A stretch of 64,000 nucleotides of DNA. Origin: Acidobacteriota bacterium (lineage in GTDB: Bacteria; Acidobacteriota; UBA890; WLXD01). Under the pieces are notes generated by a model. That model did not search any database, was not told where the DNA came from, and saw only the letters and a list, made by a program, of their open reading frames with translations. The translations under genes were made by a program, and so were the position numbers. Of the stretch, positions 10,906-21,432 are shown piece by piece. Positions within the stretch are counted from its first letter, which is position 1, and every line of letters begins with the position of its first letter. The stretch is from assembly GCA_963666055.2 (NCBI GenBank), contig CAXWPH010000011.1, positions 160,001 through 224,000 of the forward strand, in the 5' to 3' direction.

Positions 10906-11793
10906 ATGAACCGACGATTCCGGAAAGCCACGGCGATCCTAGCGACCTCACTGGCGTTGTGCGCGGTGCAACCGGCCGGCCAGGCCGCGGCGATACCTCA
11001 GGACAAGCTGACGTTGGCGTTCATTCCACAGGAAAACCCCGAGAAGCTGCTCGACGATATCTCGGTCATTCGCGACTATCTGTCCGAGGAAATGGGAATG
11101 GCGGTCGACGGTTTTGTAACGCTCGACCACGCTGCCGCGGTCGAGGCGCTGCGCAACGGTACCGCCGATATCTCGTTCATGGGTGCCTTGCCCTACGTCC
11201 TGGCGCACCACCACGTCGACGCTCAAGTAGTGCTCGCCGAAATCTATCGCGGCAGCCCGATGTATCGGGCGCGCCTGTTCGTGCGGCGCGACAGCGGCAT
11301 CACTAAACTCGCCGACCTGCGTGGCAAGAGCATTGCCTTCGCCGATCCGATCTCGGAGTCCGGCTATCTGTACCCGCTCGATCTGTTTGCAGACGCTGGC
11401 TTCTTGACGCCTGGCGATGACCCGCAAACATTCTTCAGCTCGGTCTACTTCGCGGGCGGCTACCAGCAGGCCATCCAGGCAGTAGCGAACGGTTACGTAG
11501 ACGCTGCCGGCGCCAGCCAATACGCCGAGCTGCTGCTGACGCCCAAGCAGTTGCTGGAGGTAACTTCGATCGCCGAATCGGATCTGATCCCCTCGCACGC
11601 CGTGATCGCGCGGGGCGATCTCGACCCGATCGTCGTAGCGGCGTTCAAGCGAGCCATGCTGAAGCTCAACGACGACGATTACCGGCACCTGCTGCAGTAC
11701 GTGTACGGCCCCGACGGCTACGTTGAGGTCGACCATGCCGCCTTCGCGGGCGTGGAGGCCCTGGCGCGAGAGTATGGCTATCTGCAGAACTAG
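10906..11793 (+). CDS. PhnD/PtxB-fold ABC substrate-binding protein with atypical binding residues
   Basis: GAGGAGG RBS; signal peptide; LAFIPQE, DLRGKSIAFADPISESGYLYP and FAGGY. Confidence 0.85.
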   Translation: MNRRFRKATAILATSLALCAVQPAGQAAAIPQDKLTLAFIPQENPEKLLDDISVIRDYLSEEMGMAVDGFVTLDHAAAVEALRNGTADISFMGALPYVLAHHHVDAQVVLAEIYRGSPMYRARLFVRRDSGITKLADLRGKSIAFADPISESGYLYPLDLFADAGFLTPGDDPQTFFSSVYFAGGYQQAIQAVANGYVDAAGASQYAELLLTPKQLLEVTSIAESDLIPSHAVIARGDLDPIVVAAFKRAMLKLNDDDYRHLLQYVYGPDGYVEVDHAAFAGVEALAREYGYLQN

Positions 11794-11872
11794 CGTCCTG
11801 TGGTGGCAATCTCGGTGTTGCGATTCGTCGACGATGGGCGAGGCATCGAGCCGTTCCTGAAGGGAGCAATCC

Positions 11873-12664
11873 GTGTCTGAGCCGGTACTCCGCCTGCGCG
11901 ACCTACGCGTTCGCTACGGCTCCAGGCCGCCGGTCCTCGACGTCGGCGCGCTGGAGGTCGCCGCCGGGGAGATCGTTTGTGTCATCGGGTCCAGCGGCGC
12001 CGGCAAGACGACGCTTCTGCGACTGGCCAACGGCTACGTGCGCGCCGAGAGCGGTGAACTCGAGGTCCTCGGTACACCGACTCGCTTCGGGCCCGACAGC
12101 GGCACCGATCGGCGCGACCGGATGCTGCGGCAGCGCGTAGGCTTCGTATTCCAGAGTTTCAACGTTATCGAACGCGCCAGCGTGTTCGACAACGTCCTCT
12201 GGGGTTCGCTCGGCCGCCAACATGGCCTCGGCGCGCTGCTCGGCCGCTTTCCCGAAAGCGACCGACGCCTGGCCATGGAGGCGATTGCCGAGGTCGATCT
12301 GTTGGCGCAGACCACACAGCGTGTGGATACCTTGAGCGGCGGCCAGCAGCAGCGGGTCGGTGTGGCGCGCGTCATCATGCAGCAGCCGGAACTGGTGCTC
12401 GCCGACGAGCCGGTGTCGAGCCTCGATCCGGTGCTCGCCGAGGAGATCGTCGAGTTGCTCGTCGGGGTCGCCCGGCGACACGGCAAGACGTTGATCATGA
12501 GCCTGCACCTGCCAGCGCTGGCGCAGCGTTTCGCCGATCGCGTGGTCGGGCTGCGAGCCGGCGGGGTGGTCTGGGACGGTGCCGCGGTGGCTCTGGACGA
12601 CACCGCCATCGCCTCGATCTACGGATCTGAATCGCCACCGCCGGCGCCGGAGGTCGGACAATGA
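11873..12664 (+). CDS. ABC ATPase, PhnC-like
   Basis: GSSGAGKTT, LSGGQQQRV, LADEPVSSLDP and SLH. Confidence 0.92.
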   Translation: MSEPVLRLRDLRVRYGSRPPVLDVGALEVAAGEIVCVIGSSGAGKTTLLRLANGYVRAESGELEVLGTPTRFGPDSGTDRRDRMLRQRVGFVFQSFNVIERASVFDNVLWGSLGRQHGLGALLGRFPESDRRLAMEAIAEVDLLAQTTQRVDTLSGGQQQRVGVARVIMQQPELVLADEPVSSLDPVLAEEIVELLVGVARRHGKTLIMSLHLPALAQRFADRVVGLRAGGVVWDGAAVALDDTAIASIYGSESPPPAPEVGQ

Positions 12665-13473
12665 GGTCTGATGCCCACACGGCCAGCCCCGCTGCCCCTG
12701 CGCCACCCGAACAGAGTCTGGGCACGACGCTGCGTCGCTCCACCGGGATGATTGCTCTGGCTGTGGTGGTCGCTTGGGCGTGGCACGGTACCGGCTTCGA
12801 GCTCAGCCGCCTGGGCGGCAGCCTCGCGCCACTGATCGAGTTCTTAGACCGCATGACCCCACCGGATCTGTCGGCACTCGAAGTGGCGATGAGATCGACG
12901 GCCGAGACGCTCCAGATCGCCGTGCTCGGGACGTTCTTGGCCGTCGTCCTGTCGATACCGCCGGCGTTGTTGGCGGCGGCGAACCTAACGGCGGCGTGGA
13001 TCCACCAGCCGGTGCGCTGGCTTCTGGCGCTGCTGCGCGGTATTCCACTGCTGTTGCTGGCACTGATGTTCGTTGCTGCGCTTGGCTTGGGACCCGTACC
13101 CGGCGTGCTCGCCGTGGCCGTGCATTCGGTCGGCATGCTGGCCAAGTTCTACGCCGACGCCTTCGAGAGCGCCCGGCCGGGCCCCATCGAAGCGCTCGAC
13201 TCCGCCGGCGCCAACTGGCTCCAGCGCGTACGCTACGGTGTGCTGACGCAGGTAGCGCCCGATCTGGCTCGCGACACGCTGTTCCGCTTCGAGCTGAACC
13301 TACGCGAGTCGCTGGTCTTAGGCCTCGTCGGTGCGGGCGGTATCGGCTTCTACATTCAGCTCTACATCCGTTCCTTCCGCTACACGAGGGTGGCCACCCT
13401 GACGCTGGTGATCCTGGTGATCGTCGTGCTGGTAGAACAGGGCAGCGTCGCGATTCGTCGCCGGCTCAGCTGA
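12661..13473 (+). CDS. ABC permease, PhnE/PtxC-like
   Basis: ETLQIAVLGT, LAKFYADAFE..GPIEAL and RFELNLRES.LGLVGAGGIG; ATGA overlap with the ATPase. Confidence 0.9.
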   Translation: MRSDAHTASPAAPAPPEQSLGTTLRRSTGMIALAVVVAWAWHGTGFELSRLGGSLAPLIEFLDRMTPPDLSALEVAMRSTAETLQIAVLGTFLAVVLSIPPALLAAANLTAAWIHQPVRWLLALLRGIPLLLLALMFVAALGLGPVPGVLAVAVHSVGMLAKFYADAFESARPGPIEALDSAGANWLQRVRYGVLTQVAPDLARDTLFRFELNLRESLVLGLVGAGGIGFYIQLYIRSFRYTRVATLTLVILVIVVLVEQGSVAIRRRLS

Positions 13474-13489
13474 GACGCGGTTGTCTCCC

Positions 13490-13801
13490 CTACCCCGCCC
13501 GGCGCTCGGCGATCAGGCTGGCGGCGAAGCCGTCGTAGTCGGCAGCGCGACGCTGCAGCATGTCGCGCAGATGCTCCAACGCCTTCTCCTTGCTCGATAG
13601 CCCGTACATGTAGATCTTGAGCGGGCCGATCAAGCCGAGGTAGTAGTGGTTGGTGGCGTCGTACTCGGCGGCGCAGGCGCTCGGATCGATGGCGACTGCG
13701 AGCAGATCGTCGAAGGTGTCGGCGAACTGCGCCAGCAGCGGTTCCCGATGTAGGTCTGTCGGAATCTCAGGGAAGCGAGTGACGAGGTCTTGGACGGTCA
13801 T
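13490..13801 (-). CDS. Hypothetical protein (~103 aa; start may be 13879)
   Basis: MTVQDLVTRFPEIP...PSACAAEYDATNHYY; typical codon usage. Confidence 0.6.
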   Translation of the reverse strand: MTVQDLVTRFPEIPTDLHREPLLAQFADTFDDLLAVAIDPSACAAEYDATNHYYLGLIGPLKIYMYGLSSKEKALEHLRDMLQRRAADYDGFAASLIAERRAG

Positions 13802-13915
13802 CGGGCTTGGGTCCGGGAGTTGATCTGCGGCGGCGATCGACAACGCAGTAGTCCAACACTCTATACGCTGCGCCGCCATCAGCCCTCCCGTCGCTGCGAA
13901 GAATCACCAGTGCGG

Positions 13916-14265
13916 CTACGGCTTTTTCTCCAGAACCCGGAGAGTATAGGGTGAGGATTGCCGCGCCGGACGATCCTCGATCCAGTCGAGCACTTCGGCG
14001 CGAAAGCGCACCGGTTCGTCGACGGAATCGAACCGGTCGATATCCTTCACCTGCGAAGACCTGGTTAGAGCCGACCCAACGGATCCGATCCGAGGACCTC
14101 CTCGACGCCAGCGACATCTCCCAGCGCGGAAATCGCCTGCTGTGTCGTCTGCCGGTTGCAGGGCAGGAACAGCATCACTTCAACCGCATGAACTTCGGCG
14201 GCCGCCGCACGGGCGACGCCCAGCGCCACGAAAGCCATTAGCACGACCTTCGTCCAGGGTTTCAT
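13916..14265 (-). pseudogene. Second exported HMA-like protein, frameshifted or internally deleted
   Basis: AAGGAGG RBS and ATG 14265; signal peptide, then AEVHAVEVMLFLPC...ALGDVAGVEEV; TAA at 14065. Another frame continues QVKDIDRFDSVDEPVRFRAEV...YTLRVLEKKP* to 13916. Confidence 0.5.
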
Positions 14266-14420
14266 GATGGCCTCCTTGTCGCTGCAGGTTGGATGTCTGA
14301 GAGCCTCGCTTTCTTCGCCGGGCGCGGAGGAATCCGTCACCGACGCCACAGCCCGATGAAACGAGCCTGGCGTGCTGAGCGGCTGAGCAAGTCGAAACGC
14401 CCGAGCGGCGACGACTTGCG

Positions 14421-15434
14421 TCAGGAACCTCTGGCGAAACGCTGCACCCGCGAGGCGGCGAAATCGGCCACGTAGAGGCGGCCTTCGGAATCGACGTCGA
14501 TGTCGGCGGGCGAGTAGATGCGCCGCGTGCTCCGGTACCAACGCTCGGCGGCACGGGACACGAGAAAGACCTGTCCGGACGGGTCTAGGCCCTGGACTCG
14601 AAAGTTGGCGCTATCGGCGACGAACAGATTGCCCTCCGCGTCGGTGGCGAGGCCTACGGGGACTTCCCACTCGCCGGCCTCCGCGCCCTTGCGTCCCCAA
14701 CCCTCGCGGAGGGTGCGGTCGGACTCGAACACGAGGATCTCGTAGGCGTGGGTATTACTGACATAGAGCGTGTCGTCCGGCCCGACGGCAGCGTCGCTGG
14801 GGAAGACGAACAGGTCGTGGGGATCGCCCGGTGTGGCCATCATCGACATCTTCGTCTCCTCCATCCCGCGGACCGGCGGGCGGTTCTGAGCGTAGCGGCG
14901 CGCGGAGTCACCGCCGTCGATAAAGCGTATGAAGTTGCCTTCGGAGTCGAGCTCCTGGACACGCTGGCCCATGAACTCCACGACGATGACATTGCCCGTC
15001 GGCGTGACCGCCACGCCGCTGGGAGCCTGGAACTGACCGGCACCCGTTCCGCGCCCTCCCCATACCTCGAGCAGCTTGCCATCGCGGTCGAGCAGCAGCA
15101 GCCGATCGCCGGTGTAGTCGGTCACCAAGATCGTCCCGTCGAGCCGTTCCGCCAAGCCGACCGGCCGCGTTCCCTCGGGCAACGCCCATTGGTCGATCGG
15201 CGTGCCGTCGGCGTCGTAAACGACGATCCGCGAGGCACCGTCGGCGACCATTACCCGCCCAGACATGCTGACAGCAATGCCCATGGGATGATCGAGGGAG
15301 CTGCCCTCGGGGCCAGCTTCTGTCCACTCGGCCTCGAGCTCGAGCGTGCCGACGAGCACCTGACCGAGCGTGCCGACCGCGCCGGTCAGAACCCCGGCGA
15401 CGATCACCAAGCGCACCCAGCGCCAGCGCCTCAT
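14421..15434 (-). CDS. Exported NHL-repeat (beta-propeller) protein with a Met-rich insertion
   Basis: Repeats HPMGIAV, RPVGLAE, GQFQAPSGVAV, FPSDAAV, VPVGLAT and SPADIDV; insert GMEETKMSMMATPGDPHD; ATGA overlap with the upstream gene. Confidence 0.85.
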   Translation of the reverse strand: MRRWRWVRLVIVAGVLTGAVGTLGQVLVGTLELEAEWTEAGPEGSSLDHPMGIAVSMSGRVMVADGASRIVVYDADGTPIDQWALPEGTRPVGLAERLDGTILVTDYTGDRLLLLDRDGKLLEVWGGRGTGAGQFQAPSGVAVTPTGNVIVVEFMGQRVQELDSEGNFIRFIDGGDSARRYAQNRPPVRGMEETKMSMMATPGDPHDLFVFPSDAAVGPDDTLYVSNTHAYEILVFESDRTLREGWGRKGAEAGEWEVPVGLATDAEGNLFVADSANFRVQGLDPSGQVFLVSRAAERWYRSTRRIYSPADIDVDSEGRLYVADFAASRVQRFARGS

Positions 15435-15988
15435 TCGTCGCTGACGCTCCCTTGTACCTGCACGGTGACAGGGGCCTTATCATCGGCTCGAGTGGCTCGA
15501 CCGTAGAGCGTCATCGACCCGGGCGGTGCAACCCTGAACGCGGCGAGAGCCTCCCTGCCTCGCTCGTCGCCGGCGACGAGCAGAAACCGCTGCCCACTGC
15601 TCTCGCTCACTAACCAGGCTGCCGTCTCGTTCGTGGCAATCGCCGGCAGGTCATTGGTGTCGGCGATTCCCCGCAGCCAAACCGTCACCCCAGTCGGCGT
15701 GAAATCGACCTTGGACACACCCGCTTCGAGCGCGGCGGGATCGAACATCGCGTCGGGCGTGAACGTCACGGTGATCAACCCTCGCTCCAGATCTTCCTTC
15801 GTGTCGGCAACGCCTTCCAGGCGTTGTAGGGATCGATTGATCCCGTAGGCTCAGAGCCCTCACGTCATCCCGTCGACACCGACCTCCGCCTTGATGACCT
15901 GGGCGGTAACGGGCGCGGCGACGAGCATCGCGAAGAACAGCCCGACGCCGACGGTGATCAAACGCCGACTTTCGGTTTGGTGGCTCAT
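15431..15988 (-). CDS. Exported HMA-domain selenoprotein with UxxU motif (GMT-U43-GL-U46), 185 aa
   Basis: AGGAGG RBS, ATG 15988 and signal peptide. VGVDGMT-TGA(15862-15860)-GGG-CTC-TGA(15853-15851)-AYGINRSLQRLEGVADTKEDLERGLITVTF continues in frame into ORF 15431..15778. Confidence 0.85.
15808..15844 (-). promoter_or_regulatory. Two tandem SECIS-like hairpins
   Basis: GGGATC-AATC-GATCCC (15844-15829) and CAACGCCT-GGA-AGGCGTTG (15826-15808), directly 3' of the two UGA codons. Confidence 0.6.
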
Positions 15989-16020
15989 GTCGACCCTCCT
16001 CGAGTCGAGGCGTCCATCTT

Positions 16021-16962
16021 TCACGGGACGATGATGTAGCGTAGGCCGAATAGCACGTTGATACTCGGCGCCAGCTGCGTGCCGTTGAGGTAACGAACCG
16101 CGGGGAGCTGCACACCGGCCTCGACGACGAAGTTGGGCCGCAGCAGGTACTGGATTCCGGGGGAAAGATACAGGAGGTTTCCGCCTGAACTGTCGACTTC
16201 CTGGTCGCCGGCGCGCGAGTGTCCCTGCCAACGGCCGTTGAGCTCCAGTAGCAAGAAGACGTCGCGGGAGCGCAATGACGAGATCCGTGTCTTGACCATA
16301 GCATCGTAGCGGAACCGGTCGCCAAGCTCGAAATCGTTGGCCTCCGTGCTTCGCGAGACGCCGACACTGGCAGTGAAGAACCAGCGGGCGGAAGGGGTCA
16401 CATAGCTTGCGATGAAGTCGGCGGTCGGGTCCCAGGATCCAGTCCCACGTTGGAGCGGCGGCGACAACAACTGCCCGTTCGATGAGTCGCGCGCGTCGCC
16501 GCGACCGGTCGGGGTCTTGACACCGCCCTGAAACGACAGCTGGACTCCTCCTCTGCCGCGATCCCGCTTCAGGAAGCGCCACTTGACCAGCAGGGTCGCA
16601 TCGCCGAAGCCCAGGCCGGCTCCAAGACGCTCTGTGCCCGCCGGGCCGTCGATTCGCATCTCCTTGTCGAGTACCGGGAATACGCCGATCAAGCTGACCT
16701 TGCGGTGCAACCCGTACACCACGGCCATCGATACCACGCTTGCTTTGAACCTACGCCCCAGAGGGTTGGGGACCTGCGCGCTGCCGCTCAGCGTGTCGTT
16801 GGCCTGCAGGAAGCTCGCCACGGTGCGGATGCCGAATCCGGAGATGAACTCCGCTCGCGCCCCCGGCGCGAAGATCTGGGCGCTCGACTCCCCGGGCCAA
16901 CCAAGAGTCAACGCCAGCACCGCGTACAGTGCCGGTCGCGATATGGTCGCTTTGCTGTTCAT
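16021..16962 (-). CDS. Outer-membrane beta-barrel 'transporter' family protein
   Basis: Signal peptide ending SSA-Q; GFGDATLLVKWRF, GVKTPTG, LQRGTGSWD and LYLSPGIQY. Confidence 0.8.
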   Translation of the reverse strand: MNSKATISRPALYAVLALTLGWPGESSAQIFAPGARAEFISGFGIRTVASFLQANDTLSGSAQVPNPLGRRFKASVVSMAVVYGLHRKVSLIGVFPVLDKEMRIDGPAGTERLGAGLGFGDATLLVKWRFLKRDRGRGGVQLSFQGGVKTPTGRGDARDSSNGQLLSPPLQRGTGSWDPTADFIASYVTPSARWFFTASVGVSRSTEANDFELGDRFRYDAMVKTRISSLRSRDVFLLLELNGRWQGHSRAGDQEVDSSGGNLLYLSPGIQYLLRPNFVVEAGVQLPAVRYLNGTQLAPSINVLFGLRYIIVP

Positions 16963-17100
16963 GCTGCTTCGTCGCTTTCCGCCGCGGCGCGGTCGCCGAA
17001 CGGCCCCTCTCGTCCGATCGCATCCAGAATCGGGCACTCGCCCACGGGCCCCTCTCCCTCGCACTGTCGCGCAATCGCATCAGCGCACACCGCATTTGAC
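16959..17100 (-). pseudogene. C-terminal remnant of a metal-sensing MerR-family regulator (CueR/ZntR/MerR type)
   Basis: QMRCALMRLRDS [1-nt shift] CEGEGPVGECPILDAIG...EAA*; its TGA overlaps the ATG of the barrel gene; no intact HTH seen upstream. Confidence 0.7.
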
Positions 17101-17368
17101 TCGAGCACCCAGATCGCCGGCTAGCTCGACAGTACCGTATTGGCAGATACGTCATGCGGACCGCGAAATTGACGCCGTAGACAAGCCGCGTCCAGGGTCG
17201 CCCGGCTACAGTTGGGCTCGACGAGTTCCACCGCGCCGGAAAACTGCTGCGGACCGTAGACGTATTGCATCATTAGATCATTAACGTAGCCACCGCTGCT
17301 CCGGGGTTGGGCAAGCGTCTCGTCGGTCCAGATCCTTACCCCGGCGGAACCGCGCAGCGGGCGCCTGG

Positions 17369-18253
17369 GTGCGGCAGGCAAGCGCGTTCCACAACCGCGT
17401 CACTGCCGACGGCTCATCGGGCTTCACTGCCGAGGCCGGGCGCTATCATCTGTACGTCTCCTATGCCTGTCCCTGGGCTCACCGGACAATCATCTTCCGC
17501 CGCCTGAAGGGGCTCGAGGAGTGCATCGGCATGACCGTCGTCGACCCGATCCGCGACCAGCGCGGCTGGGCCTTCACCGGCGCGGCAGGCAGTGAGCTGG
17601 ACCGGCTGAACGGCTTCGATTTCCTCAGCGAGGCCTACCTGGCCAGCAACCCCGGCTTCGACGGCAGGGTGACGGTACCCGTGCTCTGGGACCACCAGGA
17701 GCGAATGATCGTCAACAACGAGTCGTCCGAGATCATTCGTCTGCTCAACTCGGAGTTCGACGCCTGGGGCAACGCCGAAGCCGATTACTACCCGGCTGAG
17801 CTACGCGCCAAGATTGACGCGATCACCGAGCTCATCTATCCGAACATCAACGACGGCGTCTACCGTTGCGGCTTCGCCACCTCCCAGGCAGCCTACGACG
17901 ACGCCATCGCCGCGCTCTTCGCGACCCTCGATCAGCTCGAGGAGCGGCTGGCGGGCCACCGCTACCTGGTGGACGACACGATCACCGAGGCAGACTGGCG
18001 CCTGTTCACGACCCTGGTGCGCTTCGATCCGGTCTACGTCACCCACTTCAAGTGCAACGTCCGGCGACTCATCGACTACCCCAACCTCTGGGGCTACACG
18101 CGTGACCTGTATCAGCAGCCCGGGATCGCGGACACGGTGAACCTGGACCACATCCGGCGCCACTACTACGTCACCCACCGCAGCATCAATCCGCACGGGA
18201 TTATTCCGGCGGGCCCGGAGATCAACTACTCGACCCCGCACGGGCGTGCCTGA
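17369..18253 (+). CDS. Glutathionyl-hydroquinone reductase (Xi-class GST, YqjG-like); start uncertain
   Basis: RYHLYVSYACPWAHR, VTVPVLWD, NNESSEII and RFDPVY.HFKCN. Confidence 0.93.
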   Translation: MRQASAFHNRVTADGSSGFTAEAGRYHLYVSYACPWAHRTIIFRRLKGLEECIGMTVVDPIRDQRGWAFTGAAGSELDRLNGFDFLSEAYLASNPGFDGRVTVPVLWDHQERMIVNNESSEIIRLLNSEFDAWGNAEADYYPAELRAKIDAITELIYPNINDGVYRCGFATSQAAYDDAIAALFATLDQLEERLAGHRYLVDDTITEADWRLFTTLVRFDPVYVTHFKCNVRRLIDYPNLWGYTRDLYQQPGIADTVNLDHIRRHYYVTHRSINPHGIIPAGPEINYSTPHGRA

Positions 18254-18320
18254 CACGTACCGAGATCCCCTGCAGCGCTAGGAGTACCCGTGCGAAGACG
18301 GTCACGACGGTGGCTTTCGT

Positions 18321-18350
18321 TATGTAATAGTATTATGCGCATATGCGCAT
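18321..18350. promoter_or_regulatory. AT-rich promoter/operator with a 16-bp palindrome upstream of argR (candidate ARG box)
   Basis: ATGCGCATATGCGCAT at 18335-18350, preceded by TAATAGTATTA. Confidence 0.45.
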
Positions 18351-18372
18351 TTTCTTAGGACCGTAATTCTCG

Positions 18373-18846
18373 ATGCCGACCCGTACCAACGCTGCCCACC
18401 GCCGTCTCCTCTTACGTCGGCTGATCGAGCGCCAGGAGATCTCCTCGCAAGAGGATCTCGTTAGTCTTCTGGCGATGCGCGGTCACACCGTCAGCCAGGC
18501 AACGGTGTCGCGCGACCTCTCTGCCATCGGAGCGGTGCGCGAATCGCTCGACGGCGCCAGCACCATCTATCGACTGGTCGCAACCGCGGCCCAAGCTGAC
18601 GAGCTTCACGATCGATTCCGACAGTTCGTGCACGAGATCACTAGCTCCGCCAACATCGTAATCGTCCGCACACCTCCTGGCGGCGCTCACGCCGTTGGTG
18701 TGGCGCTCGACGATACCCGCGATCGCGGCCGCCTGCCTGAGGTGCTCGGAACCGTGGCTGGCGACGACACCCTACTCATCGTGACGCGGTCCGCCAGAGG
18801 CGGCAGCCGGCTCGCACGCAAACTCGAATCAATGTTGGAGGCCTGA
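18373..18846 (+). CDS. argR: Arginine repressor
   Basis: [23 protein letters not shown] and GTVAGDDT. Confidence 0.95.
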
Positions 18847-18847
18847 C

Positions 18848-20053
18848 ATGAAAGTTGTGCTGGCGTACTCGGGAGGGCTCGACACATCGGTCATCCTGCG
18901 GTGGATTCAGGAAAACTATGATGCCGAGGTAATCGCCTACACGGGGGATGTCGGCCAGGGTAGCGACGAGGTCAGCAATGCGCGCCTGGCCGCCAAGCGC
19001 ACAGGCGCGAGCGCCATCGAGATCGACGACCTGCGCGAGGAATTCGTCACCGATTGCATCTTCCCGGCGCTGCGCGCCAACGCGGTCTACGAGTGGTACT
19101 ACCTCATGGGTACGGCGCTGGCGCGGCCGGTACTCGCCCGCGGCCTGGTGCGCGCCGCCGAGAAGCACGGAGCCGAGGCCATCGCGCACGGCGCCACCGG
19201 CAAGGGCAACGACCAGATCCGCTTCGAGATGGCAGCGTACGCGCTCAAGCCAGACATCAAGATTATTGCCCCGTGGCGCGAATGGAGCTTCAAGGGACGC
19301 TCCGACCTAGTTGCCTACGCTCAGGAACACGGGGTCGATCTGTCGGCAGCACCCCGACCTGAGTACTCGATGGACGCCAACCTCATGCACGTCTCCTACG
19401 AAGGTGGCGTGCTCGAGGACCCGTGGGCGCCATCACCGCCGGGCATGTTCCGCATGACTACCGACCCCGAGAATGCACCGGACGAGCCTGAATACGTCGA
19501 AGTCTCCTTCCGCGAGGGCGTGCCCGTCACCATCAACGCCGAGGAGCTGTCGCCAGTAACTCTGGTGGAGCGTGCCAACGAGATCGGTGGACGCCACGGA
19601 GTGGGCCGCGTGGACATGGTTGAAAACCGCTTTCTGGGTATGAAGAGCCGTGGTGTCTACGAAACCCCCGGCATGACGTTGCTCATGCACGCCCATCGCG
19701 CCGTCGAGTCGATTACGCTCGACCGTGAGGTGCAGCACCTGCGCGACGAGCTCGTGCCGCGCTACGCCGAGATGGTGTACAACGGTCTCTGGTTCAGCCC
19801 CGAGCGCGAGGCCTTGCAACAGTTCATGGACTCGGTGCAGGAGCGCGTCACTGGCGACGCGCGTTTGAAGCTGTACAAAGGCGCGGCGACGATCGTGGGG
19901 CGGCGCTCGGCAACCCGTACGCTCTATGACAAGGCCACGGTGACCTTCGAGGCCGACGACGTTTACGACCAGAGCGACGCCACGGGCTTTATCCGGCTAC
20001 GCGCACTACGGCTGCGCACTCTGGGCGCACGTCGTATCTCGGAGGGCGAATGA
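18848..20053 (+). CDS. argG: Argininosuccinate synthase
   Basis: [24 protein letters not shown] and SRGVYETPG. Confidence 0.98.
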
Positions 20054-21432
20054 TGCCCCTACTCCGTGGCCGCTTCGACGCGCAGGTCGACAAGCTCATG
20101 CAGCGCTTTGCGTCGTCGCTGCAGATCGATCTGCAAATGCTCGACGAGGATATTCAGGGGTCGCTGGCGCACGCGCAGATGCTCGGCGAGACCGGCATCA
20201 TCTCGAAACAGGAAGCTGCCGCCCTGTGCGACGGGCTGGCACGAGTGCGCCAAGACCTCGCGGCGGGGGCCTGGGTACCGGGCGACGAGCTCGAAGACGT
20301 GCACATGGCAGTCGAGGCGCGCCTGTCCGAGCTCCTCGGTGACGTCGCGGGCAAACTGCACACGGCTCGGTCGCGCAACGATCAGGTGGCCACCGACCTG
20401 CGCCTATGGCTCAAAACACGTCTGCAACGGCTCGACGGTGCGCTGATCGAGCTGCTGCGCGTGCTCTTGGACCGGGTCGAAAGCGACGGCTCCACGGTTC
20501 TACCCGGATACACCCACCTACAACGAGGGCAGCCGATTCTCTTCGGCCATCATCTGCTGGCGTATACATGGCCGTTGTCACGCGACCTCGGCAGAGTACG
20601 GGACGCATTGCATCGATTCGACGAGTGTCCTCTGGGGGCGTGCGCGATGGCGGGCACTTCGTTCCCTATCGATCGGCATCGCACCGCCGAGCTCCTTGGC
20701 TTCAGGGTGCCGACAGAGAACGCGATGGATTCGGTAGCGGCGCGCGACCACGTTCAGGAGGTCGCCAGCGCCTGTTCGATCCTGTCCTGCAACCTCTCGC
20801 GCATGGCCGAGGAGCTGGTCCTCTGGAGCTCGGCCGAGTTCGCGTTCGTTCGCCTCAGCGATGCCTATTCCACCGGATCGAGCATCATGCCGCAAAAACG
20901 CAACCCTGACGCCGCGGAACTTGTTCGCGGTAAGTCAGCATCGGTGCTCGGCAACTGTGCCGCCCTGCTGGCCCTGCCTCGCTCTCAACCATTCGCGTAC
21001 AACCGCGACTTGCAGCAAGATCGCGAGGCGCTGTTCGCGGCCGTCAAGACGACCATCGACTGTGTACTCGTCATGACGGAGGTGTGGCGAACCCTCTCGA
21101 TCGACTGCGAGCGCTTCGAGGCCGATCTGGTTGGCGACTTCAGTCTGGCAACTGAGGTCGCCGACGAGCTCGCCCGTGGCGGCCTGCCATTCCGTGCCGC
21201 GCATGGAATCACCGCTCGGTTGGTCCGCCGTTGCGAGGACCGAGGCTGCACGCTGGACGGCCTGGCCGCAGAGGAGCTCGAAGCCCTCCATCCAGGGCTC
21301 GGCGGCGTGGTGTCTGGCGTCGGCTCGCCGCGCGACGCGGCGGAACGCCGGCGATCACACGGCGGGTCGTCATCGTCGGAGATTGCCCGGCAGGTCGCCG
21401 TCCTGCGCAAGGTCGTCGCAGCGTCGACCTGA
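20050..21432 (+). CDS. argH: Argininosuccinate lyase
   Basis: [16 protein letters not shown] and [12 protein letters not shown]. Confidence 0.97.

Follow-up and report, generated by a model that had tools for sequence, protein, structure and literature searches.

Selenoproteins with selenocysteine (Sec, U) at both metal-binding positions of an HMA domain are already catalogued. Tables in two reviews (PMC13188914 and PMC9312934) list UxxU HMA proteins, credited to Zhang and Gladyshev (2007), together with Sec-containing MerT, a cation-transporting ATPase, and other metal-related selenoproteins. The main text of Zhang and Gladyshev (PMC1976440) yielded no passage on a UxxU protein, and the attribution rests on the two review tables. 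The corresponding family model, NF041115 (UxxU_metal_bind, metal-binding [seleno]protein), likewise describes an HMA domain with Sec at both CxxC cysteines; it is a sequence-only prediction in which a soft metal is presumed. Here, we describe a gene in a 64,000-nucleotide stretch of an Acidobacteriota genome (G000:C11:160001-224000, hereafter the window), whose reading frame runs GVDGMT-TGA-GL-TGA-AYG. The gene encodes an exported two-domain HMA protein in which, very probably, both metal-site Cys positions are read as Sec, giving GMT-U-GL-U. The novelty that a previous sequence-only reading of this gene had implied was overstated, as the UxxU HMA protein is a catalogued kind of selenoprotein in NF041115 and in the review tables.

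The window protein scored 35.5 bits against NF041115 (cut-off, 95), over profile positions 5 to 56, and it carries UxxU at the site. NF041115 models a bare HMA domain of 74 positions, whereas the window protein begins with a signal peptide, carries some 80 further residues as an additional domain, and is encoded in one operon with an outer-membrane protein and an NHL propeller. Eight other Sec forms of the phylum scored 34 to 49 bits, and none of 401 genomes of the phylum contained an NF041115 member over the cut-off; G047, a genome in that scan flagged as unpublished, underlies none of our claims. Judged by sequence, the window protein resembles NF041115 proteins in its likely working mode but lies outside that family; an HMA selenoprotein with UxxU is known as a kind, and the family of the window protein is uncatalogued. 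Similarly to MerP (TIGR02052), it has a signal peptide and one HMA domain with a GMxCxxC-type site, and the folds match (1afi; Z, 6.0); however, it scored 30.5 bits against a cut-off of 92.55, has Sec for Cys and an additional C-terminal domain, and lacks the merR, merT, and merA genes of a mer operon within window positions 11000 to 21000. CopZ/Atx1-type chaperones (NF033795 and NF047957) share the fold (Foldseek match to CopZ, 6ff2: root mean square deviation [rmsd] of 1.4 Å over 67 columns and a TM score of 0.90 by target length), but they are cytoplasmic Cys proteins of about 65 to 70 residues, whereas the window protein has 185 residues with a signal peptide and scored 36.4 and 28.6 bits against cut-offs of 91 and 85, respectively. 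NF045683, a MerT/CopZ fusion-like heavy-metal transport selenoprotein, has Sec and an HMA domain in common with it but is a membrane fusion protein of 235 positions, against which the window protein reached 22.4 bits (cut-off, 375).

A parallel for the decoding comes from an unrelated protein. UXXU-type Group 4 [NiFeSe] hydrogenases, as described in PMC13582414, likewise have two UGAs three codons apart with a structure resembling a selenocysteine insertion sequence (SECIS) downstream; the authors suggest a single SECIS for both UGAs, and that 2026 paper raises the decoding of two close UGAs as an open point. In contrast to that proposal, the HMA family has two conserved hairpins past the TGA pair, and its UxxC relatives have just one. 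Our literature search returned no description linking selenocysteine, an HMA domain, and a SECIS; nor did it return a link between NHL repeat proteins and MerT or MerP, or a description of an outer-membrane/HMA/NHL module.

Reading of the minus strand confirmed the AGGAGG ribosome-binding site, the start at ATG 15988, the signal peptide, and the two-TGA frame of the sequence-only reading. With TGA translated as U, the product has 185 residues, MSHQTESRRLITVGVGLFFAMLVAAPVTAQ-VIKAEVGVDGMT-U-GL-U-AYGINRSLQRLEGV..., where MSHQTESRRLITVGVGLFFAMLVAAPVTAQ is a signal-peptide-like N terminus, after which the frame goes on as VIKAEVGVDGMT-U-GL-U-AYGINRSLQRLEGVADTKEDLERGLITVTF. The terminal TGA (15431 to 15433) overlaps the ATG (15432 to 15434) of the next open reading frame (ORF; 14421 to 15434) as ATGA, so that both the length and the overlap given earlier agree with the TGA-as-U translation and the ORF list. 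Where the window gene has AGGAGG, its orthologs have AAGGAG or GAGGAGG. When C was written for U, the protein matched the Pfam HMA family (PF00403) over residues 38 to 93 with 38 bits (cut-off, 24.8; E value, 2.2e-9). Therefore, both TGAs occupy the Cys positions of GMxCxxC, and the claim that they fall exactly on these two positions is also borne out by the Cys residues of TGA-less homologs. Export by the twin-arginine translocation (Tat) pathway was considered as well, given an SRRL sequence in the window protein, and was rejected because the RR pair is absent from the orthologs in genomes G002 and G008.

An AlphaFold2 model built from a 41-row alignment (predicted local distance difference test [pLDDT], 90; predicted template modeling score [pTM], 0.81) places a helix at residues 8 to 22, corresponding to the signal peptide, and positions U43 and U46 between a strand at residues 30 to 39 and a helix at residues 44 to 55, where HMA proteins bind metal. 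The modeled domain has the beta-alpha-beta-beta-alpha-beta order of HMA domains, and its metal site lies in the loop that follows strand 1. Its structural matches were Ccc2a (Z, 8.5; rmsd, 1.6 Å over 72 residues), GolB (Z, 6.7), NmerA (Z, 6.5), and MerP, already mentioned. The strand-strand-helix-strand-strand elements of the C-terminal domain span residues 123 to 183 of the model, and a search with the whole model returned weak OB-fold-like matches for this domain with Z of about 5, e.g., 2hql (Z, 4.9, over model residues 99 to 185).

The source genome (5.73 Mb in 15 contigs, 95.7% complete) contains the machinery for Sec insertion. Profiles for selA, selB, and selD matched with 533.6, 367.5, and 326.6 bits, respectively, each over its curated cut-off, and two Rfam tRNA-Sec matches exceeded the gathering score (68.2 and 66 bits); ARAGORN called both as tRNA-SeC with a tca anticodon. 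Thus, selA, selB, selC, and selD, whose presence the sequence-only reading had made a test of its proposal, were all found by profiles, Rfam, and ARAGORN. The two tRNA-Sec genes are one acceptor-stem base apart, have an identical 3' flank, and carry G at the discriminator position before the CCA end. Their loci (G000:C13:66094-66187 and G000:C6:7936-8029) may reflect a real duplication or assembly redundancy. The same genome also encodes the alpha subunit of formate dehydrogenase, FdhA, with one in-frame TGA followed by a hairpin whose apical part is CC-AGUCU-GG and whose loop starts 18 nucleotides (nt) past the TGA. As a separate observation, FdhA (G000:C3:76500-79500; L177 and L178) matched its profile in two pieces, positions 1 to 369 and 367 to 1009, which meet at 78400 to 78407 and suggest a frame change inside the gene.

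Cysteine charging requires U73 in the tRNA. The two tRNA genes of the source genome, which differ by a single acceptor-stem base, both combine a discriminator G and a tca anticodon, the canonical tRNA-Sec form. This form argues against the foremost alternative, in which the TGAs are recoded as Cys or another standard residue, by a SelC*-type tRNA-ReC that brings Cys to SECIS-guided UGA or by near-cognate read-through, and the product is an ordinary CxxC HMA protein. The remaining Rfam tRNA-Sec matches proved to be tRNA-Ser when checked with ARAGORN, and no search was aimed at other unusual tRNAs. On the other side stand the very presence of two tRNA-Sec-like genes in the genome and, as reported in the hydrogenase paper, the occurrence of tRNA-ReC-like genes in about 56% of UXXU-hydrogenase genomes versus about 2.3% of other Sec-type genomes (PMC13582414). 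Taken together, we regard recoding as Cys as improbable.

To place the gene among its relatives, we drew on searches at three scales. A protein search of 61 genomes returned three orthologs with both TGAs, at 84% (G002), 42% (G004), and 61% (G008) identity, along with TGA-less distant homologs in G020, G048, and G014 that read DGLSCPFCAYG or DGLACAFCAYG, with Cys in both TGA columns. A profile built from seven sequences (the window gene, the close orthologs, and the distant homologs) was then scanned over 401 genomes of the phylum at an E value of ≤1e-8. It matched 91 genomes, and many of the matches bore two TGAs or one TGA. Inspection by eye confirmed 20 UxxU genes, one per genome (G000, G002, G004, G008, G101, G145, G376, G398, G103, G308, G258, G146, G136, G317, G294, G231, G347, G200, G061, and G339), with a two-TGA match in G207 left out of the count as unconfirmed. 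UxxU genes down to about 20% amino acid identity keep both TGAs. The scan also found many CxxC genes and 13 UxxC genes, of which 12 read FGMD-U-xxC-AH (two of them in G124) and 1, in G020, reads GMT-U-GGC; one more UxxC gene lies in a named Blastocatellia metagenome-assembled genome (L059). Codons 43 and 46, which the earlier reading had singled out for comparison, therefore occur as TGA/TGA, TGA/TGY, and TGY/TGY among the relatives. With both TGAs found again in 19 other genomes, and with Cys at the two positions in TGA-less homologs, their placement is beyond chance. Finally, scanning of named genomes with the pattern G[ML]xC[GPA][LF]CAYG, which is written in Cys codons and hence blind to Sec forms, yielded at least 579 Cys-form loci in many phyla.

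A maximum-likelihood tree of 41 full-length members was computed with C written for U, so that the residue itself cannot bias the tree. Two label changes among UxxU, UxxC, and CxxC suffice on this tree, compared to a mean of 17.8 for shuffled labels; the CxxC genes stand on one side of a branch (support, 88/84), and the UxxC genes form one clade (100/99). A single origin of the Sec forms is allowed by the tree rather than shown, given weak support for its deep branches and an arbitrary rooting. The ratio of nonsynonymous to synonymous substitution rates (dN/dS) between the genes of G000 and G002 is 0.26 over codons 47 to 185 and 0.18 over codons 47 to 73, from TGA 2 to the internal start that gene callers use, where dS is low (0.098 versus 0.29 for codons 47 to 185); between G000 and G008, it is 0.20 over codons 47 to 104. 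These ratios indicate purifying selection on the codons surrounding the TGAs.

Two RNA hairpins are predicted downstream of the TGAs (Table 1), both in the window gene and in its orthologs in G002, G004, and G008. Over the 54 nt past the motif, the fold z-score versus shuffles averaged −1.83 for UxxU genes (22 motif hits, two of which, L083 and L095, were later set aside as chance frames) and −0.19 for 141 CxxC genes, with −4.5 for the window gene. The 20 UxxU genes align gap-free over 66 nt, and RNAalifold recovered both helices unprompted. In this structure, 88.8% of the alignment cells pair, compared to 35 to 48% with slid partners, and none of 500 shuffles reached its covariation score. 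Altogether, seven pairs show changes on both sides, accounting for five of the six pairs of helix 1 and two of the seven pairs of helix 2, where four pairs are invariant; the clade of the window gene has helix 1 shifted in register by one base. Hairpin 2, scored as at least six of seven pairs, is present in all 20 UxxU genes, in 1 of 141 CxxC genes, and in none of 16 UxxC genes. Its codons CGC, GGC, and GTT or GTC are each found in 20 of 20 UxxU genes, whereas CxxC genes draw on every synonym for the same residues, and hairpin 2 is kept despite residue differences (RLEGV, RQAGV, and RQSGV). The hairpin arms of the window gene use codons that are in the minority in its genome (CTA, 0.047; CGA, 0.134; GTT, 0.126; CAA, 0.212). 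The loop of hairpin 2 is of a type resembling that of FdhA, and G stands at one of the first two positions of the loop in all 20 UxxU genes for hairpin 2 and in 15 of 20 for hairpin 1. Among the 141 CxxC genes, 28 show helix-1-like pairing. In the UxxC clade, only one hairpin is present, of another sequence (CACGC-CGUGN-GCGUG), and it lies about 12 to 26 nt past the TGA. An Rfam scan of 15600 to 16050 gave two chance-level snoRNA matches only (12.4 and 11.5 bits), with no curated family over the hairpins.

Judging from its invariant CGCC/GGCG stem and its loop G in 20 of 20 genes, hairpin 2 is the likeliest SelB site. Given Sec insertion, the sequence comparisons slightly favor an arrangement of one hairpin per UGA, because helix 2 is confined to genes with a second TGA, a hairpin is retained in UxxC genes where helix 1 would be, and CxxC genes as a rule have neither. 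Nearly as probable is the alternative that hairpin 2 would bind SelB for both TGAs and that hairpin 1 would be a compacting spacer; helix 2 is the sole nucleotide-invariant element, and the loop of helix 1 in the window gene is G-less, both of which speak against one hairpin per UGA.

The association of the hairpins with TGA-bearing genes also bears on a further alternative, in which the TGAs are stops that delimit a 42-residue N-terminal peptide and a product of about 112 residues made from an internal start. Such a product is what the databases contain: under genetic code table 11, the ORF called is 15431 to 15778, and the window gene is represented by a 112-amino-acid call in the public protein collection, where 11 of 12 matches for the gene and its orthologs are C-terminal fragments of 104 to 113 residues, unnamed or labeled hypothetical protein. 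That gene callers would split or miss this gene had been anticipated, and the record agrees. Nonetheless, the HMA domain extends across both TGAs and past the internal start, codons 47 to 73 are under selection ahead of that start, Cys-form homologs are continuous through the TGA region, and hairpin 2 marks all UxxU genes and a single CxxC gene of the 141. Hence, we give the stop reading very little credence. The twelfth public match, P0012 (177 amino acids), has a MerR-type helix-turn-helix N terminus fused to an ortholog from RLEGV onward; its junction coincides with the site of hairpin 2, and either a chimeric assembly or a genuine rearrangement may account for it.

Independent DNA was sought in public sequencing runs, 20 of which, from 10 studies, match part of the stretch, 6 of them over half or more of the sampled words. 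We compared 67 contigs from four runs of four studies; being contigs rather than reads, they hide rare variants. Contigs from two of these runs, X1 of study P1 and X4 of study P2, are identical to the window over 15807 to 16050; either run may be the sample behind the window's own assembly. At the TGA bases and in the CGCC/GGCG core of hairpin 2, the 67 contigs show no listed variant. Variants do occur in both codons that separate the TGAs (15854, 15856, and 15857), in the codon before TGA 1 (15863 to 15865), in the loop of hairpin 1 (15836 and 15837), and at the last loop base of hairpin 2 (15815), and those at 15841 and 15824 are A-to-G changes on the coding strand that retain a G-U pair. 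Of the proposed check on independent sequence, the presence of both TGAs thus held in the X1 and X4 contigs, with raw reads replaced by assembled sequence. Separately, the summed contig depth in X1 and X4 rises from a range of 2 to 8 to one of 750 to 940 over 15796 to 15861 only, i.e., the TGA and hairpin region; many related genes of these samples share this short stretch at ≥85% identity.

The weakest alternative, a pseudogene in which two nonsense mutations or sequencing errors struck a former CxxC gene, could point to the two-piece match of FdhA in the same genome, but it is close to refuted by the persistence of both TGAs in 20 genomes at amino acid identities down to about 20%, by selection on both sides of the TGAs, by the agreement of contigs from two studies, and by the mere two label changes on the family tree. 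The argument that two chance nonsense changes at just these codons would be very unlikely is upheld by the same 20 genomes and by the Cys residues of the TGA-less homologs. In all, the Sec machinery, the conserved TGA/TGA pair, and the TGA-bearing contigs of public runs support the Sec decoding proposed in the sequence-only reading.

Table 1. Positions of the gene, its coding and RNA features, and its operon neighbors in the window
Feature	Position	Strand	Remarks
Whole gene	15431..15988	-	185 codons and a terminal TGA; codes for an exported HMA protein of two domains, with two TGAs in frame
AGGAGG ribosome-binding site	15995..16000	-	6 nt upstream of ATG 15988
Predicted signal peptide, residues 1-29	15902..15988	-	Hydrophobic helix 8-22, then VTA/Q (slash, predicted cleavage point); judged from sequence and model helix
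TGA 1, codon 43 (U43)	15860..15862	-	First Cys position of GMxCxxC
TGA 2, codon 46 (U46)	15851..15853	-	Second Cys position of GMxCxxC
HMA domain, residues 30-106	15671..15901	-	Beta-alpha-beta-beta-alpha-beta; Pfam match and structure model
C-terminal domain, residues 107-185	15434..15670	-	Strand-strand-helix-strand-strand; structure model
Hairpin 1, GGGAUC-AAUC-GAUCCC	15829..15844	-	nt 19-34 from U of TGA 1
Hairpin 2, CAACGCC-UGGAA-GGCGUUG	15808..15826	-	nt 37-55 from TGA 1; best SECIS candidate
Upstream gene, outer-membrane protein, Phenol_MetA_deg family (PF13557)	16021..17064	-	Pfam, tblastn
Downstream gene, NHL-repeat beta-propeller	14421..15434	-	ATG overlaps the HMA gene stop (ATGA); Pfam, tblastn

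The HMA gene lies 32 nt downstream of the outer-membrane gene, in a region of even GC content (0.62 to 0.68). Both neighbors also flank the orthologs of G002 and G004; the G008 contig has the outer-membrane gene and breaks off within the HMA gene. At the other UxxU loci (n = 19), where the flanks are just 1.5 to 2.7 kb, tblastn located the outer-membrane gene at 13 and the NHL gene at 8. Among 80 Cys-form loci from named genomes of many phyla, 55 have the outer-membrane gene, 39 the NHL gene, and 35 both. In other phyla, the module has the CxxC form and often stands beside MerR and MerT genes. Pfam analysis of 10 of 12 chosen Cys-form neighborhoods (80 of 115 ORFs, excluding every ORF of L105 and L110 along with some that were short or on the minus strand) found a MerR-family regulator at 7 of the 10 loci, MerT at 2 (in one case as a fusion with an HMA domain), and, at one locus each, a heavy-metal P-type ATPase and a pyridine-nucleotide disulfide oxidoreductase. 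Other neighbors of the window operon are a GST and a phosphonate ABC transporter.

Beyond the NHL gene, a 66-codon ORF (14068 to 14265, minus strand) combines a signal peptide with an HMA-like start (VEVMLFLPCNRQTTQQAISALGDVAGVEEV) and ends in TAA. In a different frame of the same strand, 13925 to 14060 encodes ...EDRPARQSSPYTLRVLEKKP, which resembles the C-terminal HPYTL motif of Cys-type relatives with an E value of 0.12 only. When the 41 family proteins were compared by tblastn with the ORF downstream of the NHL gene, the best E value was 0.012. Together, the two segments may represent what is left of a second family member after a frameshift.

How the protein might be made and used can be outlined as follows. 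SelB with Sec-tRNA would decode both TGAs with the hairpins as a guide, hairpin 1 acting either as a second SECIS for the first TGA or as a spacer. The exported protein would then coordinate a soft metal, either Hg(II), Cu(I), or Ag(I), through its two selenolates, and its partners in a periplasmic metal-handling module would be the co-transcribed outer-membrane barrel protein and the NHL propeller. As a matter of general chemistry, a pair of selenolates has a higher affinity for Hg(II), Cu(I), or Ag(I) than a pair of thiolates, and the very high soft-metal affinity put forward in the sequence-only reading would draw on that chemistry. From the fold, the signal peptide, and the neighbors, we infer a periplasmic soft-metal-binding role in an envelope module. 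Mercury as the metal is suggested only by the neighbors of distant relatives; this link comes from the Cys-form loci because the window operon is without mer genes nearby.

Several observations weigh against this picture, some against the decoding and others against the module. The loop of hairpin 1, AAUC in the window gene, lacks the early G there and in G002 and G004. The loops start 21 nt past TGA 1 (hairpin 1) and 31 nt past TGA 2 or 40 nt past TGA 1 (hairpin 2), so that neither hairpin has the FdhA spacing of 18 nt, although the 21 nt of hairpin 1 come near it and would suit TGA 1, and hairpin 2 with its loop G would fit TGA 2. bSECISearch allows SECIS loop spacings of 16 to 37 nt, a range that the 40-nt distance of hairpin 2 from TGA 1 exceeds. 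Because the core of hairpin 2 never varies (four of its seven pairs are invariant), its support comes from synonymous-site conservation and from presence and absence more than from covariation. There were no RNA runs among the public runs matching the gene. As for the module, outer-membrane and NHL neighbors were found at 0 of 12 UxxC loci and 0 of 5 GAT-U-AT-U loci, and genes for MerR, MerT, MerA, a P-type ATPase, or a disulfide oxidoreductase were absent from window positions 11000 to 21000.

The fullest version of our proposal combines two parts: tandem hairpins, one per UGA, that would serve UGAs nine bases apart (UxxC genes keeping the first hairpin and CxxC genes neither), and a periplasmic diselenolate metal trap that would form the core of a widespread barrel/HMA/NHL module for mercury-like soft metals. 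We put this joint proposal forward tentatively, as somewhat more likely to fail in one of its parts than to hold throughout. Whatever its fate, the short list of proteins with two Sec residues at a metal site gains a well-supported family found in at least 20 genomes of one phylum, one that current gene calling truncates and that escapes every NCBIfam model. Set side by side, the UxxU, UxxC, and CxxC genes offer a natural experiment on the decoding of closely spaced UGAs, and attention is drawn to a three-gene envelope module that occurs in many phyla, often under a MerR-type regulator.

Some relatives of the window gene stand out in their own right. In G398, the UxxU HMA frame at L139:1459-3222 (plus strand) continues without a stop through 588 codons and takes in a large C-terminal region, which could be a fusion or a missed stop. 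The FGMD-U-xxC-AH clade comprises 12 exported one-TGA HMA genes (L146, L148, L153, L154, L156, and L167 to L173). Cys forms in Bacteroidota-labeled records have about 205 to 250 residues and end in a conserved LPxCCxYER-like motif (L055, L060, L068, L075, L077, L086, L091, L094, L106, L107, L120, and L124), a C-terminal module that differs from the HHGHPYTL ending of the 170- to 190-residue forms. A further type of HMA selenoprotein, GMT-U-GGC, is encoded in G020 (L131:3221-3553, plus strand) and is represented by one-TGA matches to NF041115 in G006, G008, G014, G116, G129, G350, G368, and G398. Against NF041115, this type reached 63 to 77 bits, still below the cut-off of 95 and nearer to that family than the window protein.

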